From a phage, in assembly GCA_017676145.1 (NCBI GenBank), contig GCA_017676145.1_3628.1: 64,000 nt of DNA; one strand, 5' to 3'. The first letter of the stretch is position 1. Every line of letters starts with the position of its first letter. Made by a program: the position numbers and the translations under genes. Below, piece by piece: positions 9,266 through 62,874 of the stretch. Under the pieces are notes generated by a model that worked only from the letters and a program-made list of their open reading frames with translations, did not search any database and was not told where the DNA came from.

Positions 9266-9499
9266 ATGAAAGTTAAATTTCTTACAGATTTAGGGTACCC
9301 TTCCTTGGTTGACTGCGTTGGTAAAATTGTGGAAGCAAAACGGCTATCTGCAAACGATAATGTTGTCATGGTTAAGGGAAAAGATTTACTGGCTGCAGGT
9401 GCAGAGTCTGGCAGGATCTCTCCTGACTATACGTATTACCTGTCTTTAAGTAATCTACCAGAACGAGGCGGCAAAGGCCTTGAAGTTGTGGAGGAGTGA
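9266..9499 (+). CDS. small protein, member of MKVK...KGxDLxAAGA...EVVEE paralogous family
   Basis: MKVKFL N-terminus, VKGKDLLAAGA core, C-terminal LEVVEE; ggaggt SD. Confidence 0.55.
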   Translation: MKVKFLTDLGYPSLVDCVGKIVEAKRLSANDNVVMVKGKDLLAAGAESGRISPDYTYYLSLSNLPERGGKGLEVVEE

Positions 9500-9503
9500 C
9501 AGT

Positions 9504-10022
9504 ATGCTATTAGTTGATTGGAAAGATTTTTATGGAGATAAAGACCCGAAAGCCTTTATATATAAGCCATGGAGATACTCAGAGAGTCAAATTGCTGCAA
9601 TAAACCTTACAGCAAAGCGCCGAAAAATTATCGAAAGTAAATATAGATACGCTCAGCTAGTAGCTGGTGTTTCTCCACAGGTAGAGAGTTTTGTGCTCAA
9701 ACTGTACGAAAAGTTTATGAGTTACGATCTGTCATTCGTGAAGGTTGGTGATGATTTATCTCCTGGTAACAACGTAACCCGTTGGAAAGTTTCATGTGAC
9801 AAAAAACTCCCGGTCAGTATTGAGGTGTGCCGATACTGGGGGTATCATGATTGTGGATTGTACGACTATCATGATGTGGAAATAAAGCCACGCAATCATC
9901 TAAGCGACCCAGAAAAAGATTACTTGAAGCATGTGATTCTTTCCATGTTTGGAGGGTACATCACAGAGAAAAATAGCGAAGACAGGGTATCCTTTCTTAA
10001 CAGTTTGAACCAGGAGATGTAG
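9504..10022 (+). CDS. hypothetical protein (172 aa)
   Basis: ATG at M9 of track ORF 9480..10022, preceded by gaggag SD. Confidence 0.5.
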   Translation: MLLVDWKDFYGDKDPKAFIYKPWRYSESQIAAINLTAKRRKIIESKYRYAQLVAGVSPQVESFVLKLYEKFMSYDLSFVKVGDDLSPGNNVTRWKVSCDKKLPVSIEVCRYWGYHDCGLYDYHDVEIKPRNHLSDPEKDYLKHVILSMFGGYITEKNSEDRVSFLNSLNQEM

Positions 10023-10023
10023 T

Positions 10024-10260
10024 ATGACTATAGACACTGTGCTGGTTTGGTATTGCGCATTGACCTTTCTGACAATGGTTGTTTTAGCAACTCTTTGCAT
10101 CATATCTTGTAGAAAAATTAAGTTTGACGACTTCATAACTATAATCACTGCCGCACCTTTTTGGCCTGTTGTTCTCTTCATTGTGGTTATGTGCTTGGTA
10201 GATCACTGTAAAACCGTCAGGAAAATGAAGGAGGCAGATAAGAATGGTAACAGTGCCTGA
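10024..10260 (+). CDS. small membrane protein (78 aa, two predicted TM helices)
   Basis: Hydrophobic stretches LVWYCALTFLTMVVLATLCII and ITAAPFWPVVLFIVVMCLV. Confidence 0.5.
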   Translation: MTIDTVLVWYCALTFLTMVVLATLCIISCRKIKFDDFITIITAAPFWPVVLFIVVMCLVDHCKTVRKMKEADKNGNSA

Positions 10261-10374
10261 AACTGTTTATGCTGTTCTTAGGGAGATTGCATTCTATACA
10301 GACCTTAGTTTAGCATCTTCATGGGAAAAGAGTATGTATTTAAAATGGTGCGTGAAATTAGAGGGGGCCTTCTA

Positions 10375-10494
10375 ATGTTTCAAGCCATGTTTATTGAAAT
10401 GCTCTCTGGAGTATTACTGCTAGTAGCCATTTTGGGTGGCGCGGCACTGATGTATAATTATCTTGAAAAAGGGGACAGTAATGACAAAAAATAA
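10375..10494 (+). CDS. micro-ORF encoding hydrophobic peptide (39 aa)
   Basis: ATG 6 nt after gaggggg SD; MFQAMFIEMLSGVLLLVAILGGAALMYNYLEKGDSNDKK; overlaps next start by 14 nt. Not on track. Confidence 0.35.
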   Translation: MFQAMFIEMLSGVLLLVAILGGAALMYNYLEKGDSNDKK

Positions 10495-10666
10495 ATCCTT
10501 AGAACAGGCTGAAAACCTTCTCCACGAGCTGGTAAAGGAGTGGAAAGTCGAATACTCAGATTTTAATGCAAGAGAGGGGGAAGATTATTGGCCTACGGAG
10601 CGCTCAGAGGGAGAGTGGTATCAAGATTTCATAGAATGGTTATATCAGACGTGCGATGAGGGGTGA
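10481..10666 (+). CDS. hypothetical acidic protein (61 aa)
   Basis: ATG at M7 of track ORF 10463..10666 preceded by aaggggac SD. Confidence 0.45.
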   Translation: MTKNKSLEQAENLLHELVKEWKVEYSDFNAREGEDYWPTERSEGEWYQDFIEWLYQTCDEG

Positions 10667-10668
10667 CG

Positions 10669-11124
10669 ATGTTTGTTAAATATGTAAAAACGTGCCTCAA
10701 CAACCTTGGTAGAGAGCATTGGTACACCCTGCTTGAAAAAGGAGAAATTTTAACAAAATCTGGAAAGATAACTTTGATACCCTTGGATGATAAAGACCCG
10801 TCACTACTTGTCATAGATGATTACGTTACAGGTGTGTCGTACGAAGTCTCTGTGGAGAGGTTAATACGCAGATCTGGAGGGCCTTATGACCGAAGAGAGT
10901 ATGTTTTCGATTCTGTTACAGAGAAGGAGGATCCGTCTCTAATGTTTAGGATGGTAATCAGAGATATGAAATCATCTATACATAGGATCGTAAAGGACAT
11001 TAAAGAGCCTTTTAGGGTAAAAGTTAAGAAGTTTTTTGATTCTAAGATCAACATACTCGCCGTTGTGCTGGGCGTAATTCAACTTCTGTTAATTTTGCAC
11101 TATCTTGAACTGTTGTTCAAGTAG
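10669..11124 (+). CDS. hypothetical protein with C-terminal TM segment (151 aa)
   Basis: ATG at M3 of track ORF 10663..11124; C-terminal ILAVVLGVIQLLLILHYL. Confidence 0.5.
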   Translation: MFVKYVKTCLNNLGREHWYTLLEKGEILTKSGKITLIPLDDKDPSLLVIDDYVTGVSYEVSVERLIRRSGGPYDRREYVFDSVTEKEDPSLMFRMVIRDMKSSIHRIVKDIKEPFRVKVKKFFDSKINILAVVLGVIQLLLILHYLELLFK

Positions 11125-11184
11125 TGTACAACAAGGCACAAAGGATGTGCCATGATCAAATAAACTAAGAAAGAGGTAGAGAGA

Positions 11185-11532
11185 ATGCCAAAGATTAAGT
11201 CGATACTAATGTGGGCAGCTGTTGTGGCTTTTGTAGGATACTGGACTTGGGAAACTGAATTAAAAGATATCGGATATACCAGTCTTGAGAGCAAGGCATG
11301 CATTGGCATAACCGATGCATTCAGGCAAAATGCTATGGATCACGAATGTGTCGATGCAGATATAGATGAGAAACTGTCTAAGGACAAGGATTTTTACCAT
11401 GGTCATGCCTTGCTTGATAGTGGTGACACTGTAGAATTCTGGTCGTGGTTCCGTGAAGATGGAACAATAAAGACAGCAGTAAAGATTTCCAACAAAGAGT
11501 TAATGCTGTTGCAGCAGAAGGAGGTGCAATGA
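11185..11532 (+). CDS. hypothetical protein with N-terminal TM/signal-anchor (115 aa)
   Basis: agaggtagagag SD; N-terminal ILMWAAVVAFVGYWTW. Confidence 0.5.
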   Translation: MPKIKSILMWAAVVAFVGYWTWETELKDIGYTSLESKACIGITDAFRQNAMDHECVDADIDEKLSKDKDFYHGHALLDSGDTVEFWSWFREDGTIKTAVKISNKELMLLQQKEVQ

Positions 11533-11816
11533 TTTGGATATCCTACACTGATGGCACCATGCTGTATACTGCAGGTACTAGGTATGAAGTTCAGGAGGAC
11601 GATAAAAAATTTATCGTAAAAACATTTGACAAGGACGACAACCTTTTGTTAGAATTGACTTACAAGGTTGGGGAGGTATCTAGCATCCAATTGGATTGCG
11701 GTCATAAAGATAACCCGCTCAAGAAACCTGGGGTAGGTAAAGCTTCAGAAGAACGCCTGTCTCGTATTGCAGAAAGTGTTTCTGCACAAAAATCTAAGAA
11801 GGGGACTAGAAAATGA
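11529..11816 (+). CDS. hypothetical protein (95 aa)
   Basis: Track ORF, start overlaps upstream stop (ATGA). Confidence 0.5.
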   Translation: MIWISYTDGTMLYTAGTRYEVQEDDKKFIVKTFDKDDNLLLELTYKVGEVSSIQLDCGHKDNPLKKPGVGKASEERLSRIAESVSAQKSKKGTRK

Positions 11817-12007
11817 AAAACTTACGTTTTAACACTTATTACTACAACACTTTGAATGATTTGTATTATATTGTTCGAAGTAAAAGTCCTGAAACAGTCC
11901 TATTCTGCCGCGAACCTTTCAAAGGGGAGGAAGTAGAGTCTGAGATGAATGTTAGCCATATTACCTCTTTGTTGCTCTCAGGTGCAATGGAAGAAGCAAT
12001 ATTCTAA
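11813..12007 (+). CDS. hypothetical protein (64 aa)
   Basis: Track ORF, start overlaps upstream stop. Confidence 0.45.
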   Translation: MKNLRFNTYYYNTLNDLYYIVRSKSPETVLFCREPFKGEEVESEMNVSHITSLLLSGAMEEAIF

Positions 12008-12025
12008 ACCAGTCGGGAGGGTTCT

Positions 12026-12211
12026 ATGAAGCACTATTGCCTGTCTGGTAGGATGGGTGCAGATTGTGATTGGATTTTCTTAAAACTTGTCAGCATCCGA
12101 GAGTCAATCCCAGAGGAAGAGCAAGAAAGCGAGCTGATGTCATGGATCAACTATTACGGCAACACTTTCCGGTATGTCAAAATGGAAGAGCTGCCAAACG
12201 AGGATGATTGA
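12026..12211 (+). CDS. hypothetical protein (61 aa)
   Basis: Track ORF with gggaggg SD. Confidence 0.45.
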   Translation: MKHYCLSGRMGADCDWIFLKLVSIRESIPEEEQESELMSWINYYGNTFRYVKMEELPNEDD

Positions 12212-12213
12212 TT

Positions 12214-12303
12214 ATGGTCGCATCAATATTAACGTTTATGGGTGGCGTGGCATTCGGATTCATTATTTGTCTGTTTATAGTTATTATGGCTATGCGAGGC
12301 TGA
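12214..12303 (+). CDS. micro-ORF encoding TM peptide (29 aa)
   Basis: MVASILTFMGGVAFGFIICLFIVIMAMRG between two track ORFs; weak SD. Not on track. Confidence 0.3.
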   Translation: MVASILTFMGGVAFGFIICLFIVIMAMRG

Positions 12304-12306
12304 ATT

Positions 12307-12591
12307 ATGAAACTGTTTGAGTGGTTTAAAAAGTTTAAATACCGAGCCGTTGCTGTATCGAAATGGACCGTCCGCTGGGTGGACGATGATGGAACACAAA
12401 TTCCAGGTGATCAGGATACAGGATACTGGGTTATGATGGAGAACGGATTTGGGAAAAGGAAGTTTAAATGTGTTGGTGCTCCTACTCTTTTAAATGTTAG
12501 AAGTGTGCCAGGGTACAGCACTATGGTTGTTTGGGAGCTATCCGGTGTTCCTCCTGCCAATGTGCAATATCTGCCAAACCCAGAAAAATAA
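12307..12591 (+). CDS. hypothetical protein (94 aa)
   Basis: Track ORF. Confidence 0.5.
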   Translation: MKLFEWFKKFKYRAVAVSKWTVRWVDDDGTQIPGDQDTGYWVMMENGFGKRKFKCVGAPTLLNVRSVPGYSTMVVWELSGVPPANVQYLPNPEK

Positions 12592-12603
12592 AAGGAGAAG
12601 ATA

Positions 12604-12888
12604 ATGAGCAATGGTGTCAGTAACAGTGCTGCAGAGTTTAAAGTGATCTGTAAAGGAACTTATTGGATAGTGAAACAGAAGGTGTACCTATTCGGTTTCA
12701 TACCGTTTTGGCAGAGATTTTGCTGGGGAGCTAACGAGCTTAAGAGATACGCTACCAAGTCTATGGCACTTATTGGTATAGCTGAATACATTGCTGCCAG
12801 AGACAGAGAGGGGAAAACTTGTTACTACACTGCTGACGAGATTCGTAACAGTGTTTACGTTCCACAACCGCCCGATGGAGACCGCTGA
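12604..12888 (+). CDS. hypothetical protein (94 aa)
   Basis: Track ORF with aaaaggagaag SD. Confidence 0.5.
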   Translation: MSNGVSNSAAEFKVICKGTYWIVKQKVYLFGFIPFWQRFCWGANELKRYATKSMALIGIAEYIAARDREGKTCYYTADEIRNSVYVPQPPDGDR

Positions 12889-13112
12889 TGAAAGTTAAAG
12901 TTTTAGATTCAAACTTCTATATTGGTCAAGAGCCTTTAGTTGGAAAAGTGTTTACCGCTATCCCTAACGAAGATTATCCTGACCTTTTAAAAATAAAAGG
13001 GGAAGATCTTATTGCCGCTGGCGCGTCTCAGGAATGCTTTGACAGTCAGTGGACCTACAACTTTGCCCTAGGGGAGGATGTGGAGGTAGTGGAGGACGAT
13101 TATGAAGGTTAA
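12888..13112 (+). CDS. small protein, MKVK...EVVEE family member (first gene of duplicated triplet A)
   Basis: MKVKVLDSNFYIGQ..IKGEDLIAAGA...VEVVEDDYEG; ATGA overlap with upstream gene. Confidence 0.55.
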   Translation: MKVKVLDSNFYIGQEPLVGKVFTAIPNEDYPDLLKIKGEDLIAAGASQECFDSQWTYNFALGEDVEVVEDDYEG

Positions 13113-13356
13113 AATTCTTGACTCTAACGTCTACTTGGGACAATCATTCCTGAAGGGAAAGGTCGTACCTGCTGTATACTTCGAAGGGTTGCCGTGGGAT
13201 GATCCTGTGCGGCAAAATCACAGCCATGTAGGCCACAATGTGGTGTTCATTTTGGGATCAGACCTGATCGCGGCTGGTGCCCCGGAATATTATTTCGGAG
13301 ATGACTCGTATTATGCCTTTGGGGTAGGGTCAGATGCAGATATTTTAGAGCCGTGA
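13102..13356 (+). CDS. small protein, MKVK family member (triplet A, gene 2)
   Basis: MKVKILDSNVYLGQ...LGSDLIAAGA; paralogous to 12888 and 9266 ORFs. Confidence 0.55.
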   Translation: MKVKILDSNVYLGQSFLKGKVVPAVYFEGLPWDDPVRQNHSHVGHNVVFILGSDLIAAGAPEYYFGDDSYYAFGVGSDADILEP

Positions 13357-13767
13357 TTGGGGACTGTTGTGAAAAATAAACTGTTCAAAGTTACAATGAA
13401 AATTCGCGGAGCTTGGAGCGTAAAGCAAGGGCGTATCCCGGAATTTGAGAAAGACTTCTACGTAGTCTCTACCTCTGAAGAGGCTGCATGCTGGCAGGCT
13501 GGCTATGCCTACGCAAGAACTTGGTACGAAGGGTACCAGACTGGGGGCTATGACGGAGAAATTGTCAGTAAGGGTGTGGAAGAAATTAATGTGTTGACAA
13601 GTGAAAAAGTTTTTGTTATAGTACATCCTGATTCCAGAGTGAAGCATTACTGGAATGCCAGAACAAAAACCTGGACACCGTTTGCAGATTCTGCTACACC
13701 ACTTTTAAACCAGAAAGCTCTTGACTCTGCCCCGAGCTACGGGGTTGTTGAAGAAAAGATAAGCTGA
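13357..13767 (+). CDS. hypothetical protein (about 130 aa), paralog of 15571..15966 (triplet A, gene 3)
   Basis: Shares HP..S.V.HYW...T.TWTP block with 15571 ORF; exact start uncertain (TTG 13357 / GTG 13369 / ATG 13396). Confidence 0.45.
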   Translation: MGTVVKNKLFKVTMKIRGAWSVKQGRIPEFEKDFYVVSTSEEAACWQAGYAYARTWYEGYQTGGYDGEIVSKGVEEINVLTSEKVFVIVHPDSRVKHYWNARTKTWTPFADSATPLLNQKALDSAPSYGVVEEKIS

Positions 13768-13784
13768 AATAGTGGGGTACTTAC

Positions 13785-14075
13785 ATGATGGATTTAGTTT
13801 TGGATACTGATAACACCGAATCGTTTAAAAAAGATGGTGTAATAAGCATGGACCAATCCTGCCATGCCAAGATTGACTCAAAATGGACCTACAAGTTTGA
13901 CGGTGAGATCTTCGCAAATGATGAGAAGGTCGTGGATGCTGTAGCCATTTTAAAAGCTTTAGGGTATGACCCTGTGAACTCATTGATCAAGGATCCTGTT
14001 GAGTTTGCAGAGTATGTTCGTAAAATGGCAGATCTTGCAGTGGATATTTTAAAAACTATCGACGACAAGCTGTAA
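13785..14075 (+). CDS. hypothetical protein (96 aa)
   Basis: Track ORF with ggggta SD. Confidence 0.5.
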   Translation: MMDLVLDTDNTESFKKDGVISMDQSCHAKIDSKWTYKFDGEIFANDEKVVDAVAILKALGYDPVNSLIKDPVEFAEYVRKMADLAVDILKTIDDKL

Positions 14076-14081
14076 AAACTG

Positions 14082-14110
14082 TTGACACAACATTTGATCT
14101 TTAGTATCAT
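14082..14110 (+). promoter_or_regulatory. sigma70-like promoter (TTGACA-17-TATCAT) upstream of hpf-like gene, followed by 5' UTR hairpin
   Basis: ttgacacaacatttgatctttagtatcat, then gaggg-tttggtt-ccctc hairpin (about 14121-14137), aaggag SD, ATG 14158. Confidence 0.5.
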
Positions 14111-14157
14111 TATTTTCAAAGAGGGTTTGGTTCCCTCTTCTTTAAAAGGAGCACGTT

Positions 14158-14475
14158 ATGCAGATTGAAATCACTGGCAACGTAGAGATCACTGAAGGTA
14201 TGGTGTCTTTCATTTCCCACAAAATGTCCAAACTGGAGCGTTTGCACCCATCTGCCAACTATGCACGTGTGAGTGTAAAAGTTGAAAATGATCACCAGGA
14301 AGTTATGGCTTTTATTTTTGACAATTCTGGGAAAGAAGTTATCGCCAAAGCTAAAGGTAGCGATGCTTACGAGGCAACTGACCGTATGGTGGATGTTGCA
14401 GCACGCCAGTTGGCTAAATGCGGTGGAAAGAAAGGTAAGGGAAAAGGTAAAGTAAAGATTGACTTTTGGGATTGA
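14158..14475 (+). CDS. hpf: ribosome hibernation promoting factor / RaiA (S30AE family) homolog
   Basis: N-terminus MQIEITGNVEITEG and ...AARQLAK closely parallel E. coli HPF (MQLNITGNNVEITEA...LARQLTK); 105 aa with Lys/Gly-rich tail. Confidence 0.75.
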   Translation: MQIEITGNVEITEGMVSFISHKMSKLERLHPSANYARVSVKVENDHQEVMAFIFDNSGKEVIAKAKGSDAYEATDRMVDVAARQLAKCGGKKGKGKGKVKIDFWD

Positions 14476-14484
14476 GGTGCTACA

Positions 14485-14586
14485 ATGGGTATGATTAAGA
14501 AATTAGTCCCAAATGTAGAGATTGCATGCTTTGAAATTATGTTTGCAATCGCAGTTGTAGTTAATGTGTTAGGTTACGGCTATTAA
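14485..14586 (+). CDS. micro-ORF encoding hydrophobic peptide (33 aa)
   Basis: ATG 5 nt after gaggtg SD; MGMIKKLVPNVEIACFEIMFAIAVVVNVLGYGY. Not on track. Confidence 0.3.
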   Translation: MGMIKKLVPNVEIACFEIMFAIAVVVNVLGYGY

Positions 14587-14612
14587 TATCAAATAATTGA
14601 GGAGACCTCTAA

Positions 14613-14882
14613 ATGAAAATTAAATTATTCAAAACTGAGCTGGCAGACAAAAACTGCGGACTGGTTGAAGGCATGATCGTTGAAGCACAACCAGTGGACT
14701 ACATGAAGGTGGTTCGTGATGCTCTGGGTGAAGGTTTTGATCTGATGGAGCCAGCTCTGCGAGAAGATGTCATCGAGATGGCTAAAAAGCACACACCGGA
14801 AGGTTTGGTAGTGTTTGTTGCTCCAGGTAACGGAGAAGAGTTGATTGTAACTCCGGATGTGTATGAGGTTGTAGAGGAGTAA
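14613..14882 (+). CDS. small protein with C-terminal YEVVEE (family-related)
   Basis: MKIKLF start, ends VYEVVEE; gaggagacc SD. Confidence 0.55.
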   Translation: MKIKLFKTELADKNCGLVEGMIVEAQPVDYMKVVRDALGEGFDLMEPALREDVIEMAKKHTPEGLVVFVAPGNGEELIVTPDVYEVVEE

Positions 14883-14970
14883 TCTTGGGTTAGCCATACT
14901 TCCTCGACAAGAAAGGTTTGTAATTATTTGCGGGAAAGGAATCCCCATCTCTTACCAGAGGTGATACTGT

Positions 14971-15234
14971 ATGATTGTTTATTTTAAAACTTCAGGTGGA
15001 TACCCTGATTCTCAAAGCTTGATTGGAAAAACGTGCACAGCATACTCGCCTCTTGATGATGAGGTAAGTGATACCCTACGAAATATGTATCGGATTGATC
15101 CACAAGAAGCTTTTGATCAGAACCTTGTATTTGTCAAGGGCTCAGACATGAAGTCTTTGGGGGCATTTCCTGAAGCAGATGATAATGCTGTTTATTCGTT
15201 TATGACCCCTTTTGAAGCTATGGTTGTTGGGTGA
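14971..15234 (+). CDS. small protein, MKVK family-related (triplet B, gene 1)
   Basis: ...VKGSDMKSLGA... core; gaggtga SD. Confidence 0.5.
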   Translation: MIVYFKTSGGYPDSQSLIGKTCTAYSPLDDEVSDTLRNMYRIDPQEAFDQNLVFVKGSDMKSLGAFPEADDNAVYSFMTPFEAMVVG

Positions 15235-15238
15235 GAAT

Positions 15239-15571
15239 ATGAAAGTACGCTTTATTGGTGAAACAATTCCTGTGCATCTCCGGTCGCCTGAGGATTCTGC
15301 AGATCTTGCATCTCAAAAGGCCAGAGGGTATGATAAGAAAGTAATCTCAACCGATGTAGAGCTTGAGGCTACCAGTCTGCCTGACCCTGCTGCATTCTTT
15401 AATCATTATGGATACTATTTCAGCAATCTGATGAATATCGGTGAGCTTGTGTTTATTAGTGGTGGAGAAATAGTTAGCAAGCTTGGCGGCGATCCGGATG
15501 TCTTTCATGAAACCTGCCCTTTTGCATTTGTGGTAGGTTCAGATGTGGAAGTTATTGAGGAGGTGCGGTAA
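15239..15571 (+). CDS. small protein, MKVK family member (triplet B, gene 2)
   Basis: ATG at M10 of track ORF 15212..15571 (MKVRFIGE); C-terminal VEVIEEVR. Confidence 0.5.
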   Translation: MKVRFIGETIPVHLRSPEDSADLASQKARGYDKKVISTDVELEATSLPDPAAFFNHYGYYFSNLMNIGELVFISGGEIVSKLGGDPDVFHETCPFAFVVGSDVEVIEEVR

Positions 15572-15966
15572 TGGTAAGTCTATACCGTGTTGAGTATAGC
15601 TCAGATACTGTATACAACGTAAGAAGCAAAGATCGTAGCGACAGAGTGCAAGAAATGTATGTTCTTGCCGACAGTCCGTTATCTGCAGCGTTTAAGGCAG
15701 GAGCTCTTGCATCTCGTTGGAAATTCGAGGGTGGATCTTTCTATGAAGAAACTCTTGAAGATTCTGTTGTTATTTCTTCTGTAGAGGTTTCAACTGACTA
15801 CGAAGGGAAAAAGTTCGTAATGCGGCACCCACACAGCAACATTGCGTACTACTGGGATGTTCTGAACAACGAGTGGACTCCAGATCTTCAGAAGGCCACT
15901 GTTCTGACTCCGTTCTTGGCAGATAAGTTCCCACCAGAAGGTAATTTATCTGCACTGTTTCAGTAA
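15571..15966 (+). CDS. hypothetical protein (131 aa), paralog of 13357..13767 (triplet B, gene 3)
   Basis: Shares RHPHSNIAYYW...NEWTP block with 13357 ORF. Confidence 0.5.
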   Translation: MVSLYRVEYSSDTVYNVRSKDRSDRVQEMYVLADSPLSAAFKAGALASRWKFEGGSFYEETLEDSVVISSVEVSTDYEGKKFVMRHPHSNIAYYWDVLNNEWTPDLQKATVLTPFLADKFPPEGNLSALFQ

Positions 15967-15984
15967 TTTTATTCTACACAGGTG

Positions 15985-16013
15985 TTGACAACACCAACCC
16001 TGTGTGCAATAAT
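15985..16013 (+). promoter_or_regulatory. sigma70-like promoter (TTGACA-17-AATAAT) flanked by inverted repeat
   Basis: cacaggtgttgacaacaccaaccctgtgtgcaataat; cacagg/cctgtg inverted repeat brackets the -35 region (possible operator). Confidence 0.45.
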
Positions 16014-16045
16014 ACCTTCATCTTAACAAGACAGGAGACTGATTG

Positions 16046-16303
16046 ATGAAGATTAAATTGAAAAACCTTGAAATGGCAGAGGTTCAGGAAGGTGTTGATT
16101 TCCGCTCTAAAGATGGCGACATCTTAGAGGCGAATATCCCGACCTATAAGTTGATTAAAGGTTTTGGCAACGTTCCTGAAGAGGATATTACAGACATTCT
16201 TATGATGTTGATCCTTGACGGGACCGTGTTTGTAGGTGAAGGTGAGAACGCTATTGCAATCCCAGGCCATTTTTATGAAGTAGTTGACGAAGAGGTGCTG
16301 TAA
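16046..16303 (+). CDS. small acidic protein with C-terminal YEVVDEEVL (family-related)
   Basis: ATG at M2 of track ORF; acaggag SD. Confidence 0.5.
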   Translation: MKIKLKNLEMAEVQEGVDFRSKDGDILEANIPTYKLIKGFGNVPEEDITDILMMLILDGTVFVGEGENAIAIPGHFYEVVDEEVL

Positions 16304-16654
16304 ATGAAAGTAGAGATCACAGGTTTTGATATGAATGTGGTTCCGGAAGATATTTTAGCTAAACTTCCGGAAGGTTTTGGTAACGGTGTTGTGGTGGATG
16401 CTGTCCCTCCTACCAAAGACATTCTGCTGCAGTATGGTGTAGCAGAGGAAGATGTCGATAAAGTTCTTACAATGATGGCAATAGACCGTGTTGTCGTTGT
16501 TAAAGGTCTTGAAGGTTTTGATGACGATCCTCTGATTATTCGTGGTGATGACTATCGCATCATCGACAACGAAGGCCAAGAGTTCTACGAACCTTCTGCT
16601 GAAGATGTTCTTAACTTACTACTGGAAGCAGGCACCGAAGAGGAGGAAGAATAA
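16304..16654 (+). CDS. hypothetical acidic protein (116 aa)
   Basis: Track ORF, ATG directly after upstream stop. Confidence 0.5.
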   Translation: MKVEITGFDMNVVPEDILAKLPEGFGNGVVVDAVPPTKDILLQYGVAEEDVDKVLTMMAIDRVVVVKGLEGFDDDPLIIRGDDYRIIDNEGQEFYEPSAEDVLNLLLEAGTEEEEE

Positions 16655-16983
16655 TGAAAATTGATCCGTTACTAAAGGCTCGTGCAGAAAAAGCATACAC
16701 TATCAAGCTGACCTCTCTGGTCCCTACTTGTCATCCGGATGTAGGTTGGCCTGAAGGCCTGGTAGAGGGGACTGTAACAGCTGCATACCTTCCTAACATC
16801 AAATACCTCATGGAGATCTTGGAGATGGATGAGGAAACGGCAGAACAGTTCCAGTTAGACATGAAGCAAAGTGGGACTCTGGTTATTCACGGGTGGTATA
16901 ATACTAAAGATGCAGAAGATCCCCTGGTAACTTCTAATCTGGCATATGAAATCTTAGGACCTTTGAACTTGGGGGAAGACTAA
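16654..16983 (+). CDS. hypothetical protein (109 aa)
   Basis: Track ORF, start overlaps upstream stop. Confidence 0.5.
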   Translation: MKIDPLLKARAEKAYTIKLTSLVPTCHPDVGWPEGLVEGTVTAAYLPNIKYLMEILEMDEETAEQFQLDMKQSGTLVIHGWYNTKDAEDPLVTSNLAYEILGPLNLGED

Positions 16984-17270
16984 TGAAAGGTTTGGTTAAG
17001 ATCAAGATTAAAGACACCAAGGGAGAACTCAGCCATTTTGGAATTAACGATGGTGACGAGCTGATCGCCCACCTGCCTACCAAGGAAGTTGTAAGCAAAG
17101 CTGTTGCCGGAGAAGAAGATGCAATGCAGGCTGCAGGTGTGGATGAAAACTATGTAGCAATGTGTATGTGCCGAGATCAGGTTGTTCTGTATAAAGCGTA
17201 TCGACCAAATGGAGCACCTGAGTGGCTTGTTTTCCGACCCGAAGGGTATGAAATTTTAGAGACGCTATGA
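16983..17270 (+). CDS. hypothetical protein (95 aa)
   Basis: Track ORF, start overlaps upstream stop. Confidence 0.5.
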   Translation: MKGLVKIKIKDTKGELSHFGINDGDELIAHLPTKEVVSKAVAGEEDAMQAAGVDENYVAMCMCRDQVVLYKAYRPNGAPEWLVFRPEGYEILETL

Positions 17271-18754: not shown

Positions 18755-19054
18755 ATGTCTACAAGGGCGGCTAAATACTCCTATATGCCATCAACCTCTG
18801 CAGAGGTAGACTTTAGTTTCGATGTGTTTCCATTGTTTGAGATAGTTCTGGCATACCCAACAATTCTATCTACTCCTGAATCACTTGTGCCTATTAAGTT
18901 GCAGAACGCTATGCATTCCATGCACTACAACAATAAATGTAGACACAGATGGTGTCAGGACGAGGAAAAAGATCTGGACAGTTTGAAAGATTTTGACAGT
19001 CACCTTTTGACCCCTTTCAGTTACTCCAACCTGGACAAGCCCTCATGGGTATAG
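18755..19054 (+). CDS. hypothetical protein (99 aa)
   Basis: ATG at M5 of track ORF 18743..19054. Confidence 0.45.
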   Translation: MSTRAAKYSYMPSTSAEVDFSFDVFPLFEIVLAYPTILSTPESLVPIKLQNAMHSMHYNNKCRHRWCQDEEKDLDSLKDFDSHLLTPFSYSNLDKPSWV

Positions 19055-20081: not shown

Positions 20082-20499
20082 TAAGTTCTTCTCTTTTCTT
20101 TTACCGAGTAATTCGGGTTTTCTGTTCTCTTCGGTTTGAAGGGGTATGGAGATACACCTGAGTGAACAGGGTGAACAACCGAACAGTTAGCTATGGCATT
20201 AGCATGGCGAAGCGGACGGGTGACGAAAGAGGGGCCGGAGGACACCAGTCACTGCCATATGGTATATGGGTGATAACCTGAAGAGTCTGAATAAGTGTTT
20301 AAGTACCAGTCAGAGGAAAAGGTGAATGGTAGCCGAAGGGGGAGGGGGGTTTCTTGTATCTTTAATTTGTATACTTTATATACACTTGTAAACCAATTCA
20401 ATTAGAATCTGTTTACCACACAAAGTGGATACAGGCAAATATTCCCTATTAAACTTGAATTATTTATAGAAAATACCACAACACCACTTAAGTCTTTGA

Positions 20500-20660
20500 T
20501 TTTACACACAAATCTTACAGATATTCAACCTCCATATTTAACATACCTGTAACATATCCCATACTCTACCTGCCTGATCAATTTCCCAAACTACATCCCC
20601 ATATTTTCCCTTCCTGTACTACCCCTGCCCCGCCGGGAGTCCCGTCATATCTGGCTTTCC
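20500..20660 (+). other. strongly strand-biased pyrimidine-rich (C+T) tract in non-coding hub
   Basis: About 160 nt with very few G on + strand (aacctccatatttaacatacctgtaacatatcccatactctacc...). Confidence 0.5.
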
Positions 20661-21044
20661 AGCAAATATCACACCCACAAATATCATCACCTGAAGAGTG
20701 ATTCCTCCCATAATCCACACCCTGCCTGAAGAGCGCTTCATACACCGCGTAAATTTTTTAATTGATCCCTCCCCGCCGCCGGAGAGGTTGGCTTTTCCCA
20801 CACAGGCCTGAAGAGTCAGCCAGAAATATCTGAAGGGTGTCCAGTTCTACCACGATTTTGACCTGACCTACAGGAGTGCTGCCCTGTCAGGAGCCGTAGC
20901 GACTGGAGTGCTGCCAGGCGGACGAAATGGGAATACTTCTCATTCTTATAACAATTCTCAAATATCGGGGCAGTGAGGCAAATTAATAGGCGAGGCCGCT
21001 CACACAGTGGCACAACATTTGCAGGCTATTTTGTGGGGGTGAAT

Positions 21045-21078
21045 GAGAATACCTATCATTGTGAGAATAGTTATCATT
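21045..21078 (+). repeat. tandem pair of 16-bp motif GAGAAYRNYTATCATT
   Basis: gagaatacctatcatt and gagaatagttatcatt 2 nt apart; same motif recurs at about 31924 and 32050. Confidence 0.55.
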
Positions 21079-21473
21079 ACGGGCAATTTAACATAATACC
21101 CATTATGCGCACCACTGTCGATACATACAGGGATTGATAACATGGGTTACTGTTTACGCATATAACAATTGTATTTCTTATTATTTGTGGGGGATATAGT
21201 TAGCAACCAATAGATTAGTTATTAACCTGCGGACTTCTGACCGTCTAGACGTCCAAACGCCCACACCACAAGGATTATACATACACTCCTGAATGTAAAC
21301 AGGTCCGAAAAAATGCTACCATACCAGTTTGTAAATTTTCCATGCAGCACTTGACAAAGAGGAGAAAAACTTGTCTGACACCTTATACACACCGGGCACC
21401 TTATACACTTTCGACACAATAACGACTGTTATTATTTCATGTTTCATTATTCACGTGCAGATTGTTCCTGCGT

Positions 21474-21535
21474 AGACTGTTTACGCCTGGATAGTTTGCA
21501 CCTGAATAGTTTACACCCTGACAGTTTACGCATAG
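21474..21535 (+). repeat. array of four AGTTTAC(G/A)C-type iterons spaced 14-15 bp
   Basis: ctgtttacgcc / tagtttgcacc / tagtttacacc / cagtttacgca in direct orientation. Confidence 0.55.
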
Positions 21536-21543
21536 ATGATAAG

Positions 21544-21562
21544 CCATGACATTCGTTTGCAT
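21544..21562 (+). repeat. 19-20 bp direct repeat copy 1 (gccatgacattcgtttgcat)
   Basis: Exact second copy at 21837..21855; the pair brackets iteron/palindrome-rich segment. Confidence 0.6.
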
Positions 21563-21594
21563 GATAACACCCTTGAGACGAGGGCTATGCTCCC

Positions 21595-21660
21595 GAGTTT
21601 AACAATTAACAAGATAACAATTGACAAGCTAACAGCCAACAAGCTGACAATTAACAGGTT
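21595..21660 (+). repeat. array of AACAATTAACAAG-like iterons
   Basis: taacaattaacaag ataacaattgacaag ctaacagccaacaag ctgacaattaacagg: four direct repeats. Confidence 0.5.
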
Positions 21661-21836
21661 AATAATATATGACATAATATAAAAGCAGGGCAACTATTAG
21701 CAGATCTATAGTTGCCTTGCTTATTATGTCATGATTAACTGAATACAAGGCAACTATGATCTGATTAATAGATTGCAGACAAACTATCACGGGGGTGATT
21801 GTTACTGCTTTTATATTATGTCGCGACTCCGTCGCG

Positions 21837-21855
21837 CCATGACATTCGTTTGCAT
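21837..21855 (+). repeat. 19-20 bp direct repeat copy 2 (gccatgacattcgtttgcat)
   Basis: Identical to 21544..21562. Confidence 0.6.
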
Positions 21856-22470
21856 AGTTGCCTTATTGTTACAGGTAAAATAATTACATTGTTAACTATT
21901 TCTTATCTTTCTCTTAGTCATCTAATGATTCCAGTCAGTATAGTTATGTGCAGTAAACATTAGACGACTAAAGATTTCTCTGATTATAGTAACCTATCGT
22001 GACAATTTCGGACTGTTTACGAAAAATGTTGACACCTGGGCAGGTTTATGTTATGCAGTTTGTACGAATAATTATTTTGTACAGGTATTGACTATTCCGT
22101 TATTCTGTGGTTGGAATAAATACTTTGCAGGCTATAGAATGGTGATCGTACGTGGATTCTGAGATCTGTCGGCTATAGTTACACCCGATTTTTCACGTAG
22201 GACGCGCTTTTTGGTTTGTGTAAGTGTATGACTTATAAGGGTTTTTAATTGTTGACAGTATACTGAAAATGTGCATCAGGTTAAATTTTGCGCAATAGCT
22301 GCATTACGTGCAATTTTGGGAGAGAAAACAGGTAAAAATAGCACCGCTACCACACAATGAAAGGTTATGCAATAGTTATTTTACATGTATATTTGTACAG
22401 TGTGCTGGATTAATGGCTCGTCAATTATTCCACTTGTCAGGTAGGGCCGTTTATGGTAGGAAAAGAGCAG

Positions 22471-39754: not shown

Positions 39755-40145
39755 TTGCTGCTTCTCCTGCATTCATCAGATCTGCCATAGCGTCACCCAC
39801 GAAGAGGACAACCACGTCGTTGACAGCGTCAGCATCATCTTTATTAATGTTGCTGAATTTGGGGCACACTGCAATGACCATATATACCCCGTTGCCCAAC
39901 TGAACAGTGCGTGTAGTGCACATCAGTGTGGTGTTTGTGCCTTCTTTAAAGGCAAATCCTTGCAGACGTTCTTCCAGAGAGTCGCCTGTTGATTTCAACA
40001 AGGCAAGATCGCCCAATGAGTAGGTAGTGTCCTCATAGGTCAGTCCAGAGGTCAGTGTTGCCTTTCCATCAGAAACTATAATAACCCCATCGGCACCGTC
40101 AAGCTCAGAGGCTTCAAAGATATTGATATCCCAAATGTTTTTCAT
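39744..40145 (-). CDS. hypothetical acidic protein (133 aa)
   Basis: ATG at M2 of track ORF; overlaps upstream stop. Confidence 0.5.
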   Translation of the reverse strand: MKNIWDINIFEASELDGADGVIIVSDGKATLTSGLTYEDTTYSLGDLALLKSTGDSLEERLQGFAFKEGTNTTLMCTTRTVQLGNGVYMVIAVCPKFSNINKDDADAVNDVVVLFVGDAMADLMNAGEAANED

Positions 40146-40417
40146 CACTCTGCCTCATCATCTAAGTAATCATCAAGAGAGGTGAAGATTTCACCGAAGT
40201 ATTCTAAGATCTCTAGCTCGCGTGTGGTGCAGCAAACATAATCTCCCTGGTCGTCCTTGATAGTAGCCTCTTTACCCAGAACATCTACTTCAAATTCATC
40301 GTTCAACAGGACGGCCCCTGTGTAAACTTTGTCAGCTGTGCAGTCCCGAAAAGCAGAGTCCTTTTCCAGATAGTCTGGCTTAACCTTGGCTTTAATTCGT
40401 TGATATTGTTTGGTCAT
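40145..40417 (-). CDS. small Cys-containing protein (90 aa), paralog of 40481..40735
   Basis: ATG at M21 of track ORF 40145..40477 (aaagggga SD) downstream of promoter 40449..40477; shares KP.Y...AF.DCT...Y...DDQGD.V.CTT pattern with neighbour. Confidence 0.5.
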   Translation of the reverse strand: MTKQYQRIKAKVKPDYLEKDSAFRDCTADKVYTGAVLLNDEFEVDVLGKEATIKDDQGDYVCCTTRELEILEYFGEIFTSLDDYLDDEAE

Positions 40418-40448
40418 TGCTGTGGTCCCCTTTCGTTTTGATAGGGCC

Positions 40449-40477
40449 ATTATATTAGGCCCCATCACTGTTGTCAA
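40449..40477 (-). promoter_or_regulatory. sigma70-like promoter (TTGACA-17-TATAAT)
   Basis: - strand ttgacaacagtgatggggcctaatataat. Confidence 0.55.
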
Positions 40478-40480
40478 GTA

Positions 40481-40735
40481 TTAATGTTCAGGTTTTACAA
40501 AAACTACTTCATTAACAGTGCACCAGACAGAGTCTCCTTCATCATCTTTAAAGGTAAGGCACTGGGCTGAGTTTTCCAGCTCATCAATCTCTTCTTGTGA
40601 TAAAGGGGCCCCTTCTTCCAGAAGGGCTTTTACCAGAGGGTTCTCACAAAACTCTGCTTCATAAATTGCACCGACTGTGCAATCCTTAAAAGCCCGGTCA
40701 TTTGCAACACATTCTGGCTTCAAAGTAATTTTCAT
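40481..40735 (-). CDS. small Cys-containing protein (84 aa), paralog of 40145..40417
   Basis: Track ORF; aaggaga SD. Confidence 0.5.
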   Translation of the reverse strand: MKITLKPECVANDRAFKDCTVGAIYEAEFCENPLVKALLEEGAPLSQEEIDELENSAQCLTFKDDEGDSVWCTVNEVVFVKPEH

Positions 40736-41193: not shown

Positions 41194-41388
41194 CTAGACA
41201 AACTCTGCAAGGGTTGTGTTGTTCACTGCACCGCAGTAGATGGAATACCCCAACCCATTATGGTGCAGAAACCACGGCACACCTTGGTCATCCTTCACGT
41301 ATACATCTCCATTTTCCGTAAAGGGCCAATACTCCTCTCCGATGGTAAAATACCTACTCATACCTTCAGCCAGATACTTTACTTTCAT
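41194..41388 (-). CDS. small protein (64 aa), member of tandem paralog trio
   Basis: YW.F.ENGDVYVKDDQGVPWFLHHNG.GY.IY pattern shared with 41385 and 41609 ORFs. Confidence 0.5.
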   Translation of the reverse strand: MKVKYLAEGMSRYFTIGEEYWPFTENGDVYVKDDQGVPWFLHHNGLGYSIYCGAVNNTTLAEFV

Positions 41389-41612
41389 AGATCCTCTTCA
41401 ACAGCTACAAACTTGGCAAGTAGGGTGGTTCCATAGATATGATACTCACCATTTGCCAGATGGGAGATAAACCAGGCAACACCTTCCTCGTCTTCGATCA
41501 TATTGTTCCTGCGATCCTTATCGTAGTAAACCTTGTAGACCTTACCTTCTTCAAAGAATGACAGGTCTGTCATCTTTTCTTCTACAAACGTCGCTTTAAC
41601 CAAAGTTGTCAT
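41385..41612 (-). CDS. small protein (75 aa), member of tandem paralog trio
   Basis: KVYKVYYDKD...EGVAWFISHLANGEYHIY; start overlaps upstream stop. Confidence 0.5.
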   Translation of the reverse strand: MTTLVKATFVEEKMTDLSFFEEGKVYKVYYDKDRRNNMIEDEEGVAWFISHLANGEYHIYGTTLLAKFVAVEEDL

Positions 41613-41920
41613 TGATCTGCCTCCTTCTTGTTGAGCCGGAACACTGCAATAATAGCATTTCCAAGATGCAGTGTCAAATCATTTCCCAGATACCATAACA
41701 TTCCACGGTCATCTTTAATGAAAGGGTAACAATCCGGTGCCTTCCAGACATTATACACTTTGCCGACCTGAAAGAAATCAGGCCCTGTTGGAATTTTAGT
41801 ACCTGGCCACACTTGAGACACCTGAACGCACTCTACCTGCATAATAACAGGAATAGTCATGGAGGTAAATGTTTTTGTCGGTTCTACTACCATAAAAGTC
41901 TCCTCTCTATCTAACAACAC
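41609..41920 (-). CDS. small protein (103 aa), member of tandem paralog trio
   Basis: KVYNVWKAPD...RGMLWYLGNDLTLHL. Confidence 0.5.
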   Translation of the reverse strand: MLLDREETFMVVEPTKTFTSMTIPVIMQVECVQVSQVWPGTKIPTGPDFFQVGKVYNVWKAPDCYPFIKDDRGMLWYLGNDLTLHLGNAIIAVFRLNKKEADQ

Positions 41921-62084: not shown

Positions 62085-62348
62085 ATGGCAACAGAGTTAA
62101 AATTTGCATCAAACCGTAAAACTAAGAAATATCTGTCCTCAGTGGCTCCAGGCACTGTGGTGATGTTTGTTGATGAACTTGGGGATGTGAATACAGCACT
62201 TGTTGTAAAATCACATCCTGCAAACATATATGTTGGGGTATTTGACCTGTTCAGAAAAGTGTTTGTAGAACTACCCCACAGTTTAGTTGTTACAGAAATG
62301 GATGCCTGCATAGAAATTCTTGGCGAAGTTATGGTGGAGGAACAATAA
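62085..62348 (+). CDS. small protein (87 aa), paralog array member 1, C-terminal GEVMVEEQ
   Basis: Same length and K-rich N-terminus/GTVV core as next two ORFs; C-terminal tail resembles EVVEE family of block 1. Confidence 0.55.
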   Translation: MATELKFASNRKTKKYLSSVAPGTVVMFVDELGDVNTALVVKSHPANIYVGVFDLFRKVFVELPHSLVVTEMDACIEILGEVMVEEQ

Positions 62349-62611
62349 TGGCTACTAGCATTGTATTCAATTCTAAGGTGAAGAACAAAAAGCGTGCAGA
62401 CAGCTTTCCGTGTGGGACCGTGGTAAGTTGCGACGGAGACGGCATTCAAAACATAGTTATGATTGTCAAAACAGGAGAACATTGTGTGTGGGGGTTCGAT
62501 TTAGAAAATAATGAGTTGTACGATCTGCCACCAAACATGAAAGTTACAGAGCTTGACACCAAAATTACCATCCTTGGAGAGACAAGCTATTCAAAAGAAG
62601 GAGGAGAATAA
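62348..62611 (+). CDS. small protein (87 aa), paralog array member 2
   Basis: MATSIVFNSKVKNKK...CGTVV; start overlaps upstream stop. Confidence 0.55.
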   Translation: MATSIVFNSKVKNKKRADSFPCGTVVSCDGDGIQNIVMIVKTGEHCVWGFDLENNELYDLPPNMKVTELDTKITILGETSYSKEGGE

Positions 62612-62874
62612 TGACCACAAAAATCACTATCGCAGAACCGAAAGCTAACACTCAACCTATCGAAAAGTTTAAATGCGGGGAGGTGGTAACATTTACACCA
62701 GATAATGAAGATGCTAAGATTTTCGCCATGGTCACAGCTGAGTGGATGTGTGACAATACCACACAGGTTCTGCGTTTTGACACCTATCTTACAGATGAAA
62801 TCAGGAACGATAAGATCGTGACTGGTGTGGATACTGAGATTATTTTCTACAAGAGCTTTTTAGAGGGTTTCTGA
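62611..62874 (+). CDS. small protein (87 aa), paralog array member 3
   Basis: MTTKITIAEPK...CGEVV; start overlaps upstream stop. Confidence 0.55.
   Translation: MTTKITIAEPKANTQPIEKFKCGEVVTFTPDNEDAKIFAMVTAEWMCDNTTQVLRFDTYLTDEIRNDKIVTGVDTEIIFYKSFLEGF

Follow-up and report, generated by a model that had tools for sequence, protein, structure and literature searches.

Why does one stretch of phage DNA carry so many small genes whose products begin and end alike, do these proteins form a single family, and what might they do for the phage? The question is raised by positions 9,266 to 17,270 of contig GCA_017676145.1_3628.1 (assembly GCA_017676145.1), of which a stretch of 64,000 nucleotides, in the following called the window, was analyzed. 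The 8.5 kb around the locus are 98.5% identical to Escherichia phage FV3, and they match 122 phage records, essentially all of the genus Vequintavirus; the window stems from a Vequintavirus, an rV5-like myovirus of E. coli. A previous reading of the sequence alone had listed seven open reading frames (ORFs) of the locus as paralogs. All seven are real, annotated genes, corresponding to FV3_00119, 132, 133, 138, 139, 140, and 142, each of which is called "hypothetical protein" in FV3. The locus is a plus-strand block of small, tightly packed genes, flanked by a gene for a ClpP-like protease and by a zone of about 2 kb that is free of ORFs. Our answer is that, judged by profile comparisons, ten small acidic genes of this block make up two separate five-member families, A and B, with a predicted SH3-like fold, and that two family A genes and a gene of a further family, D, form a trio with a host-strain-specific function, most likely counter-defence. 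We regard this reading as rather probable, with ample room for doubt.

The genes of the three families, named after their start positions and given with their orthologs in phage Bas54, are:

9266..9499, plus strand: family A, 77 amino acids (aa), MKVKFL...VKGKDLLAAGA...LEVVEE, phrog_5009, ortholog bas54_0166
12888..13112, plus strand: family A, 74 aa, used as structure query, ortholog bas54_0159
13102..13356, plus strand: family A, 84 aa, in tandem to 12888, ortholog bas54_0158
13369..13767, plus strand: family D paralog, about 132 aa, phrog_7379, directly 3' of 12888-13102, ortholog bas54_0157
14613..14882, plus strand: family B, 89 aa, MKIKLF...YEVVEE, ortholog bas54_0153
14971..15234, plus strand: divergent family A, 87 aa, VKGSDMKSLGA, insert in the strand 2-3 loop, ortholog bas54_0152
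15239..15571, plus strand: divergent family A, 110 aa, insert of about 50 aa, ortholog bas54_0151
15571..15966, plus strand: family D paralog, 131 aa, translationally coupled to 15239, ortholog bas54_0150
16046..16303, plus strand: family B, 85 aa, used as structure query, opens a four-gene tandem array, ortholog bas54_0149
16304..16654, plus strand: family B, 116 aa, acidic C-terminal extension (...EEEEE), net charge -22, ortholog bas54_0148
16654..16983, plus strand: family B, 109 aa, N-terminal extension of 15 aa, ortholog bas54_0147
16983..17270, plus strand: family B, 95 aa, ortholog bas54_0146

Family A is most evident in 12888 and 13102 (blastp E = 5.7e-14; hhalign probability 98.9%), the tail of the former gene overlapping the start of the latter by 11 nucleotides, and in 9266, which is linked to 12888 (blastp E = 3.9e-7; hhalign 97.5%). 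These three match the phrog_5009 hidden Markov model (HMM) over their full length (E = 7e-32 to 5e-38; PHROG match of 9266 at 2.5e-36). The blastp links of this core to 14971 and 15239 are weaker than those within it. Yet an HMM of the core, iterated over the 136 window ORFs, which served as gene set for the motif and blastp comparisons as well, converged on exactly 9266, 12888, 13102, 14971, and 15239. Already in the first round it recovered 14971 with E = 5.4e-6 and 15239 with 2.9e-5 (rounded, 5e-6 and 3e-5), while the best of the reversed and shuffled decoys that had been added as a specificity control reached 0.7. 14971 also matches phrog_5009 (1.4e-4), which gave no match for 15239 or any family B member; 15239 is tied to 13102 by hhalign (94.5%). 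When all 780 pairs of ortholog-enriched profiles were compared with hhalign, the probabilities within family A were 66-99%. Invariant or nearly invariant columns are M1, V3, Y11, G19, K20, G38, D40, G45, and Y57, without any conserved Trp or Pro. The VKGxDL(L/I)AAGA block, which had been ascribed to all seven ORFs, is present in 9266, 12888, and 13102 and degenerate in 14971 and 15239, but absent from 14613 and 16046, and as VKGxDLIAAGA it is a feature of family A only. The members also differ by a variable insert in the strand 2-3 loop, which is lacking in 9266 and 12888 and comprises 16 aa in 13102, about 20 aa in 14971, and about 50 aa in 15239.

The five members of family B were all retrieved by leave-one-subfamily-out profiles with E = 2e-7 to 7e-5, the best matches outside the family having E-values of at least 0.06. 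Individually, the leave-one-out values were 2.1e-7 for 16304, 9.6e-6 for 16654, 5.5e-5 for 16983, and 7.1e-5 for 14613. The blastp link between 16046 and 16304 has an E-value of 1e-4, and hhalign connects 16304 to 16046 (92.6%) and to 16654 (86%), and 14613 to 16983 (62% over 84 columns). Seven of the ten family B pairs are among the top 21 hhalign scores of the 780 pairs, with alignments of nearly full length. 14613 was not recovered by the family A profile. The proteins of both families have 74-116 aa and are all acidic (isoelectric point 4.0-5.4, net charge -1 to -22); the small ORFs of this genome are generally acidic, with a median isoelectric point of 5.4.

Could A and B nevertheless be parts of one family? 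The similarity of their ends, which the sequence-only reading had noticed, is no accident: the start MK[VI][KR]h occurs in six of the 136 window ORFs, five of them in A or B, and the C-terminal [ED][VI][VIL][ED] in seven, all of them in A or B, which is far above chance. The single paralogous family of that reading is borne out inside A and inside B, where the links are significant, but not between them, since no A-B pair exceeded a probability of 10% in the all-vs-all comparison and neither family HMM retrieved the other family. Comparison of the whole families by hhalign gave 24% (E = 8e-4), confined to the N-terminal 30 columns. Strands 1 and 2 and the loop between them are in register in this alignment, and its score of 25.1 is the best for family A, about 30 unrelated groups of ORFs reaching 18.7 at most. 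A remote homology of A and B is thus plausible but unproven by these profiles. The wider version of the idea, a single expanded family that includes 14613, 16046, and the array at 62085 and diversifies under selection as decoys, could draw on this top score, on motifs common and exclusive to these ORFs, and on the fold class and insertion site that A and B share in the models described below. We judge it improbable, because besides the low A-B probabilities several other results speak against it. The array turned out to be unrelated: HMMs hit it with E = 1.8-8.4, about as well as its own reversed decoy, and hhalign gave 7.6% over 25 columns. Diversifying selection was not found either. As dN/dS (the ratio of nonsynonymous to synonymous substitution rates) is saturated and uninformative among the paralogs, orthologs of the window and of a relative of about 90% identity (L002) were compared, and the values of 0.05-0.14 for A and 0.07-0.16 for B, i.e., 0.05-0.16 overall, are on par with those of neighboring genes (0.03-0.18). 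The orthologs are, by this measure, under purifying selection. In addition, gene order and copy set are stable over divergent lineages.

The array at 62085-62874 (plus strand) is a separate tandem array of three paralogs of 87 aa, in which 62085 and 62348 are similar (blastp 3e-10; phrog_10698) and 62611 is a weaker paralog (phrog_12861); by sequence, it constitutes a third family unrelated to A or B.

The acidic tail that had been taken as a hallmark is real as a C-terminal EVVE motif, but in the predicted structures it is mainly the fifth beta-strand, followed by a few disordered residues. Part of the likeness has a further origin. A Shine-Dalgarno (SD)-like motif is present in the last 21 nucleotides of 55% of the window genes whose successor starts within 12 nucleotides, compared to 10% of the others, and at least two Glu among the last six residues are found in 29% of the closely followed genes versus 10% of the others. 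Examples of embedded SD sites are GAGGAGG before the TAATG of 15239/15571, GGAGGA inside 12888 before the start of 13102, and GGAGGAA at the end of 62085 (the sites lie at 15555-15575, 13090-13105, and 62330-62350). The Glu-rich C-termini are, in part, a coding by-product of the SD site of the next gene, and the embedded GGAGGAA explains why the VMVEEQ end of 62085 resembles those of the families without homology. For motif-based family assignments in tightly packed phage operons this means that an embedded SD site can mimic a shared acidic tail.

The structures of one member of each family were predicted with AlphaFold2. The model of 12888, based on a family alignment of 37 sequences, has a mean predicted local distance difference test score (pLDDT) of 92.3 and a predicted template modeling score (pTM) of 0.80; its strands comprise residues 2-5, 21-23, 33-37, 56-61, and 65-69, and the DLIAAGA motif forms a short helix (38-43). 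The model of 16046 (alignment of 28 sequences; pLDDT 89.1, pTM 0.76) has the same strand order, with helices 34-38 and 45-57 inserted between strands 2 and 3, exactly where 13102, 14971, and 15239 carry their variable inserts. According to these models, the members of A and B share the fold class of the five-stranded SH3-like barrel: the five strands are antiparallel and in SH3 order, and the structural neighbors are SH3, KOW, or PsaE domains. Family A does not appear to be a canonical SH3 domain, as there was no Pfam match at E-values up to 1 and Trp and Pro are not conserved. Pfam, NCBIfam, and PDB sequence searches gave no match for A, B, or D.

An indication of function comes from another phage. 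The HIDEN-SEQ preprint reported genome-wide transposon insertions in Bas54, i.e., Escherichia phage MaxBurger (10.1101/2025.11.20.689424). The window genes share 92-98% identity with bas54_0146-0159 and bas54_0166 of this phage (96% between 9266 and bas54_0166). Insertions in K-12 are tolerated by the Bas54 counterparts of all ten A and B genes and of both D genes (10.1101/2025.11.20.689424), and thus, as far as Bas54 can tell, these genes are dispensable in a permissive laboratory host, as counter-defence genes should be. Not all are equally tolerant: bas54_0151, 0152, and 0153 are classified as "Intermediate", with TA-site saturations of 0.69-0.73, while that of 0150 is 1.0 (10.1101/2025.11.20.689424).

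The picture is different in CFE311, a clinical, uropathogenic isolate of E. coli. In the resampling sheet for K-12 versus CFE311, which was recognized by its console line, the mean counts drop from 108.3 to 0.0 for 0150 (15571, family D; log2 fold change -6.77), from 71.0 to 0.0 for 0151 (15239, family A; -6.17), and from 142.2 to 0.0 for 0152 (14971, family A; -7.16), all with q = 0 (10.1101/2025.11.20.689424). The other family D gene, 0157 (13369), is depleted from 255.9 to 57.4 (-2.14; q = 0), and the change of 0153 (14613, family B) from 142.2 to 19.8 (-2.78) is not significant (10.1101/2025.11.20.689424). The remaining A and B orthologs, 0146-0149, 0158, 0159, and 0166, are unaffected (0158, -0.30; 0159, +0.98) (10.1101/2025.11.20.689424). 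For comparison, the validated gene against the defence system DS-28, bas54_0140, is depleted from 490.3 to 10.0 (-5.48; q = 0) (10.1101/2025.11.20.689424), so that the depletion of 0150, 0151, and 0152 exceeds that of an established anti-defence gene. Disruptions of the 14971, 15239, and 15571 orthologs are thus tolerated in K-12 and completely lost in CFE311, which suggests a host-specific function of the trio. The main text of the preprint does not mention the 015x genes; DS-28 and Gao_Tmn were the only systems of CFE311 that its authors cloned, and the only knockouts they tested were those of 0063 and 0140 (10.1101/2025.11.20.689424). In the same supplement (Extended Data Table 8, Data S6/S7), the sheet for K-12 versus CFE303 shares its console command and its final rows with the CFE311 sheet, so that the file as deposited seems to lack the resampling output for CFE303.

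With these data at hand, one may also ask whether the ORFs could be non-functional filler or mis-annotations of merely compositional similarity. The lack of a functional annotation in the libraries searched and the dispensability of most of the genes in K-12 would fit, but the profile E-values are far from those of reversed and shuffled decoys, the folds are predicted with confidence, dN/dS is well below 1, the genes have been kept in a lineage at 27-75% amino acid identity, and a conditional phenotype exists. This explanation is effectively refuted, and we grant it next to no probability.

How, then, might the trio act? The A and B proteins would be early-expressed accessory proteins that bind host or phage macromolecules. 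A shared binding surface could be made up of the conserved strand 3-helix motif KGxDLIAAGA and Tyr57, and specificity could depend on the variable strand 2-3 loop. The A-A-D module 14971-15239-15571 would have a host-strain-specific function, most likely the overcoming of a defence that is present in CFE311 and absent from K-12.

Two observations weigh against this interpretation. Depleted genes come in runs, and the present run stops at the coupled D gene; and of the second A-A-D set, 12888-13102-13369, only the D gene (0157) is depleted. For both reasons, polarity onto 15571 is a serious alternative. In its full form it states that only the family D genes 15571 and 13369 carry the CFE311 function, that insertions in 14971 and 15239 disappear merely through polarity or translational coupling, as an artefact, and that A and B have an unrelated accessory role. 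Both D genes are indeed depleted (0150, -6.77; 0157, -2.14), while the A genes 5' of 0157 are not (0158, -0.30; 0159, +0.98). The stop codon of 15239 overlaps the start codon of 15571 (TAATG), further depleted runs are found elsewhere in the data set (0123-0129, 0132-0134), 15571 is unusually conserved, with at least 95% amino acid identity in 119 of 119 Vequintavirus records, and family A homologs in prophages and in record L012 occur without a D gene. On the other hand, the authors of the preprint hold that polar effects are not widespread (10.1101/2025.11.20.689424), 14971 is one full gene away from 15571 and nevertheless shows the strongest depletion, and in K-12 0150 tolerates insertions better than 0151 and 0152 do. 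The saturations of 0.69-0.73 for 0151-0153 compared to 1.0 for 0150 are a hint that the A and B genes have an effect beyond polarity onto 0150. All in all, a function of family D alone is a possibility to be reckoned with, though in our view not a likely one, and we favor the trio as the functional unit. A more far-reaching proposal, which we put forward tentatively and consider rather doubtful, is that the trio represents a new multi-component counter-defence module against an immune system of CFE311, in which the SH3-like subunits serve as specificity adaptors; the other A and B paralogs would be an adaptor repertoire directed at further host systems.

The two D genes are clearly paralogous (blastp E = 4.4e-7; hhalign 96.4%), and no Pfam or PDB relatives of 15571 were found. 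The recurrence of the order A-A-D would suggest a segmental duplication of three genes, but this was not borne out, as 12888 and 13102 are closest to each other in hhalign and not the counterparts of 14971 and 15239; the mutual closeness of 12888 and 13102 is possibly due to gene conversion.

Regulatory elements and an additional gene within the locus are:

14082..14110, plus strand: sigma-70-like promoter (conserved in L013 and L002), TTGACA-N17-TATCAT, 5' of the RaiA/HPF homolog
14158-14475, plus strand: RaiA/HPF homolog (Pfam PF02482, E = 1.8e-12), inside the cluster
15985..16013, plus strand: sigma-70-like promoter with extended -10 element, TTGACA-N17-TGTGCAATAAT, 5' of the family B array

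The sequence shows genes arranged in tightly packed, partly translationally coupled operons 3' of predicted promoters. Because these sigma-70-like promoters are conserved, early expression is expected, and the locus is probably transcribed early by the RNA polymerase of the host. The promoter at 15985-16013 has 11 of 12 consensus matches, is likewise conserved in L013 and L002, and is framed by a 7-nucleotide inverted repeat, ACACAGG...CCTGTGT (15975-16013), the sole case among 11 strong promoter-like sites of the window. In the divergent record L009 the arms are changed in a compensatory way (GGCACAC...GTGTGCC). The repeat may be an operator. The presence of a homolog of a ribosome hibernation factor amid the cluster allows yet another explanation for A and B, namely, that they are KOW/SH3-like barrels, comparable to ribosomal L24 or the KOW domains of Spt5/NusG, which modulate host ribosomes. 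However, there was no Pfam match to KOW (PF00467) and the proteins are acidic. We regard a role at the ribosome as very unlikely. In Bas54, the RaiA/HPF ortholog is non-essential in K-12 and shows no effect in CFE311 (10.1101/2025.11.20.689424).

Both families seem to be almost confined to the genus Vequintavirus. A tblastn search with 12888 matched 119 Vequintavirus records and the unrelated lambdoid-type phage MagusPhagus, and nothing else, and the reciprocal search with the most divergent member, P0040, again found these 119 records and MagusPhagus. A protein search with a single sequence yielded eight close orthologs, and searches with alignments as queries yielded 43 matches for A and 35 for B, all of the Vequintavirus type save rare family A homologs from prophages and small contigs; a scan of IMG/VR gave one locus. 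In E. coli lambdoid prophages and in MagusPhagus a single copy of family A lies between the Q antiterminator and the holin gene, 13 of the 5,426 complete genomes of E. coli having the prophage homolog, and on a short phage contig, which is unrelated, there are two copies in tandem. A, B, and D were not found in the syntenic regions of PVP-SE1 and KB57, which belong to other genera of the Vequintavirinae. A divergent Vequintavirus-like lineage (L009-L011; 27-75% amino acid identity) has all five family A genes in order as well as B genes; it has one D gene only, the counterpart of 13369 not being present. In L009, the conserved promoter is immediately followed by an extra gene for a protein of 98 aa (11092-11388; PF27050, Phage_P22_Y8K6), which separates the 15571 ortholog from the B array.

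These comparisons indicate that the families arose by old duplications and were kept by purifying selection. Unequal recombination between tandem copies is ongoing: in two metagenomic Vequintavirus contigs (L015:2501-2713 and L016:2501-2713) the pair 12888-13102 is replaced by one gene for a chimera of 70 aa (P0006/P0007), which at the DLIAAGA motif crosses over from a 12888-type N-terminal part to a 13102-type C-terminal part. A class of tblastn matches with 84% query coverage was considered as a further collapsed pair and ruled out, because AlexBoehm has both genes.

The expansion of small genes into paralogs is a general feature of this genome. Early-block sets on the minus strand include 40145/40481 (blastp 1e-7; within 40145-40735) and 41194/41385/41609 (1e-4 to 6e-4; within 41194-41920). 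The ORF-free zone of about 2 kb (20140-22300) separates the plus-strand from the minus-strand gene blocks. No tRNA and no Rfam match were found in it. It contains four tandem 15-nucleotide iteron-like repeats (21602-21666), a perfect 18-nucleotide inverted repeat (21671-21688 / 21805-21822), an exact 20-nucleotide direct repeat (21543 / 21836), and an AT-rich stretch at about 21850-22150 (GC 0.33), and the equivalent region of Bas54 has zero transposon insertions (10.1101/2025.11.20.689424). The zone is thus a candidate for a replication origin or a regulatory hub.

V5-like phages are candidates for therapy owing to their broad host range, and most of their early genes are without known function. 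At this locus, ten anonymous ORFs have now been resolved into two structural families with a defined architecture, and one module has been tied to a published but undiscussed host-specific phenotype; if our reading is true, this would be a new counter-defence function.

How do the families compare with known systems? Lineage-specific families of small accessory proteins are known from large lytic phages, and A and B are uncharacterised families of this kind. In the literature no characterised relative was found (a PNAS paper on anthracycline proved irrelevant). The PHROG database already contains the window proteins in full length and with high scores (E = 1e-32 to 1e-75), as phrog_5009, which groups 9266, 12888, and 13102, together with phrog_13920 and 13661 for A, phrog_11868, 12359, 12155, 12457, and 12794 for B, and phrog_7379 for D, all of unknown function. 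In contrast to our grouping, it splits the two five-member families into eight clusters, and it holds no information on fold or function. The closest fold class is that of the SH3-like small beta-barrels, to which the classical SH3 domain, the KOW domains of Spt5/NusG, PsaE, and the C-terminal domain of retroviral integrases belong. Among predicted viral structures (BFVD), the family A model has many matches (template modeling score 0.7-0.87, 14-26% identity) of similar length (65-88 aa), which are uncharacterised small proteins of unrelated lytic phages such as Citrobacter phage Merlin, Escherichia phage RB49, Shigella phages pSf-1 and Sf20, and Cronobacter phage CS01. These phages gave no tblastn match to two family A queries, and family B proteins were absent from the top 50 structural matches of the A model. 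With regard to function, the nearest known counterpart is the anti-DS-28 gene bas54_0140, the ortholog of which is

18755-19054, plus strand: bas54_0140 ortholog, 95% identity, phrog_12072

By sequence it does not resemble A, B, or D, and its target, the defence system DS-28 of CFE311, has been experimentally identified, unlike that of the A-A-D module. It is a small gene for a protein of unknown fold, lies in the same plus-strand block only 1.5 kb further 3', and behaves like the orthologs of 14971, 15239, and 15571, being non-essential in K-12 and depleted in CFE311.

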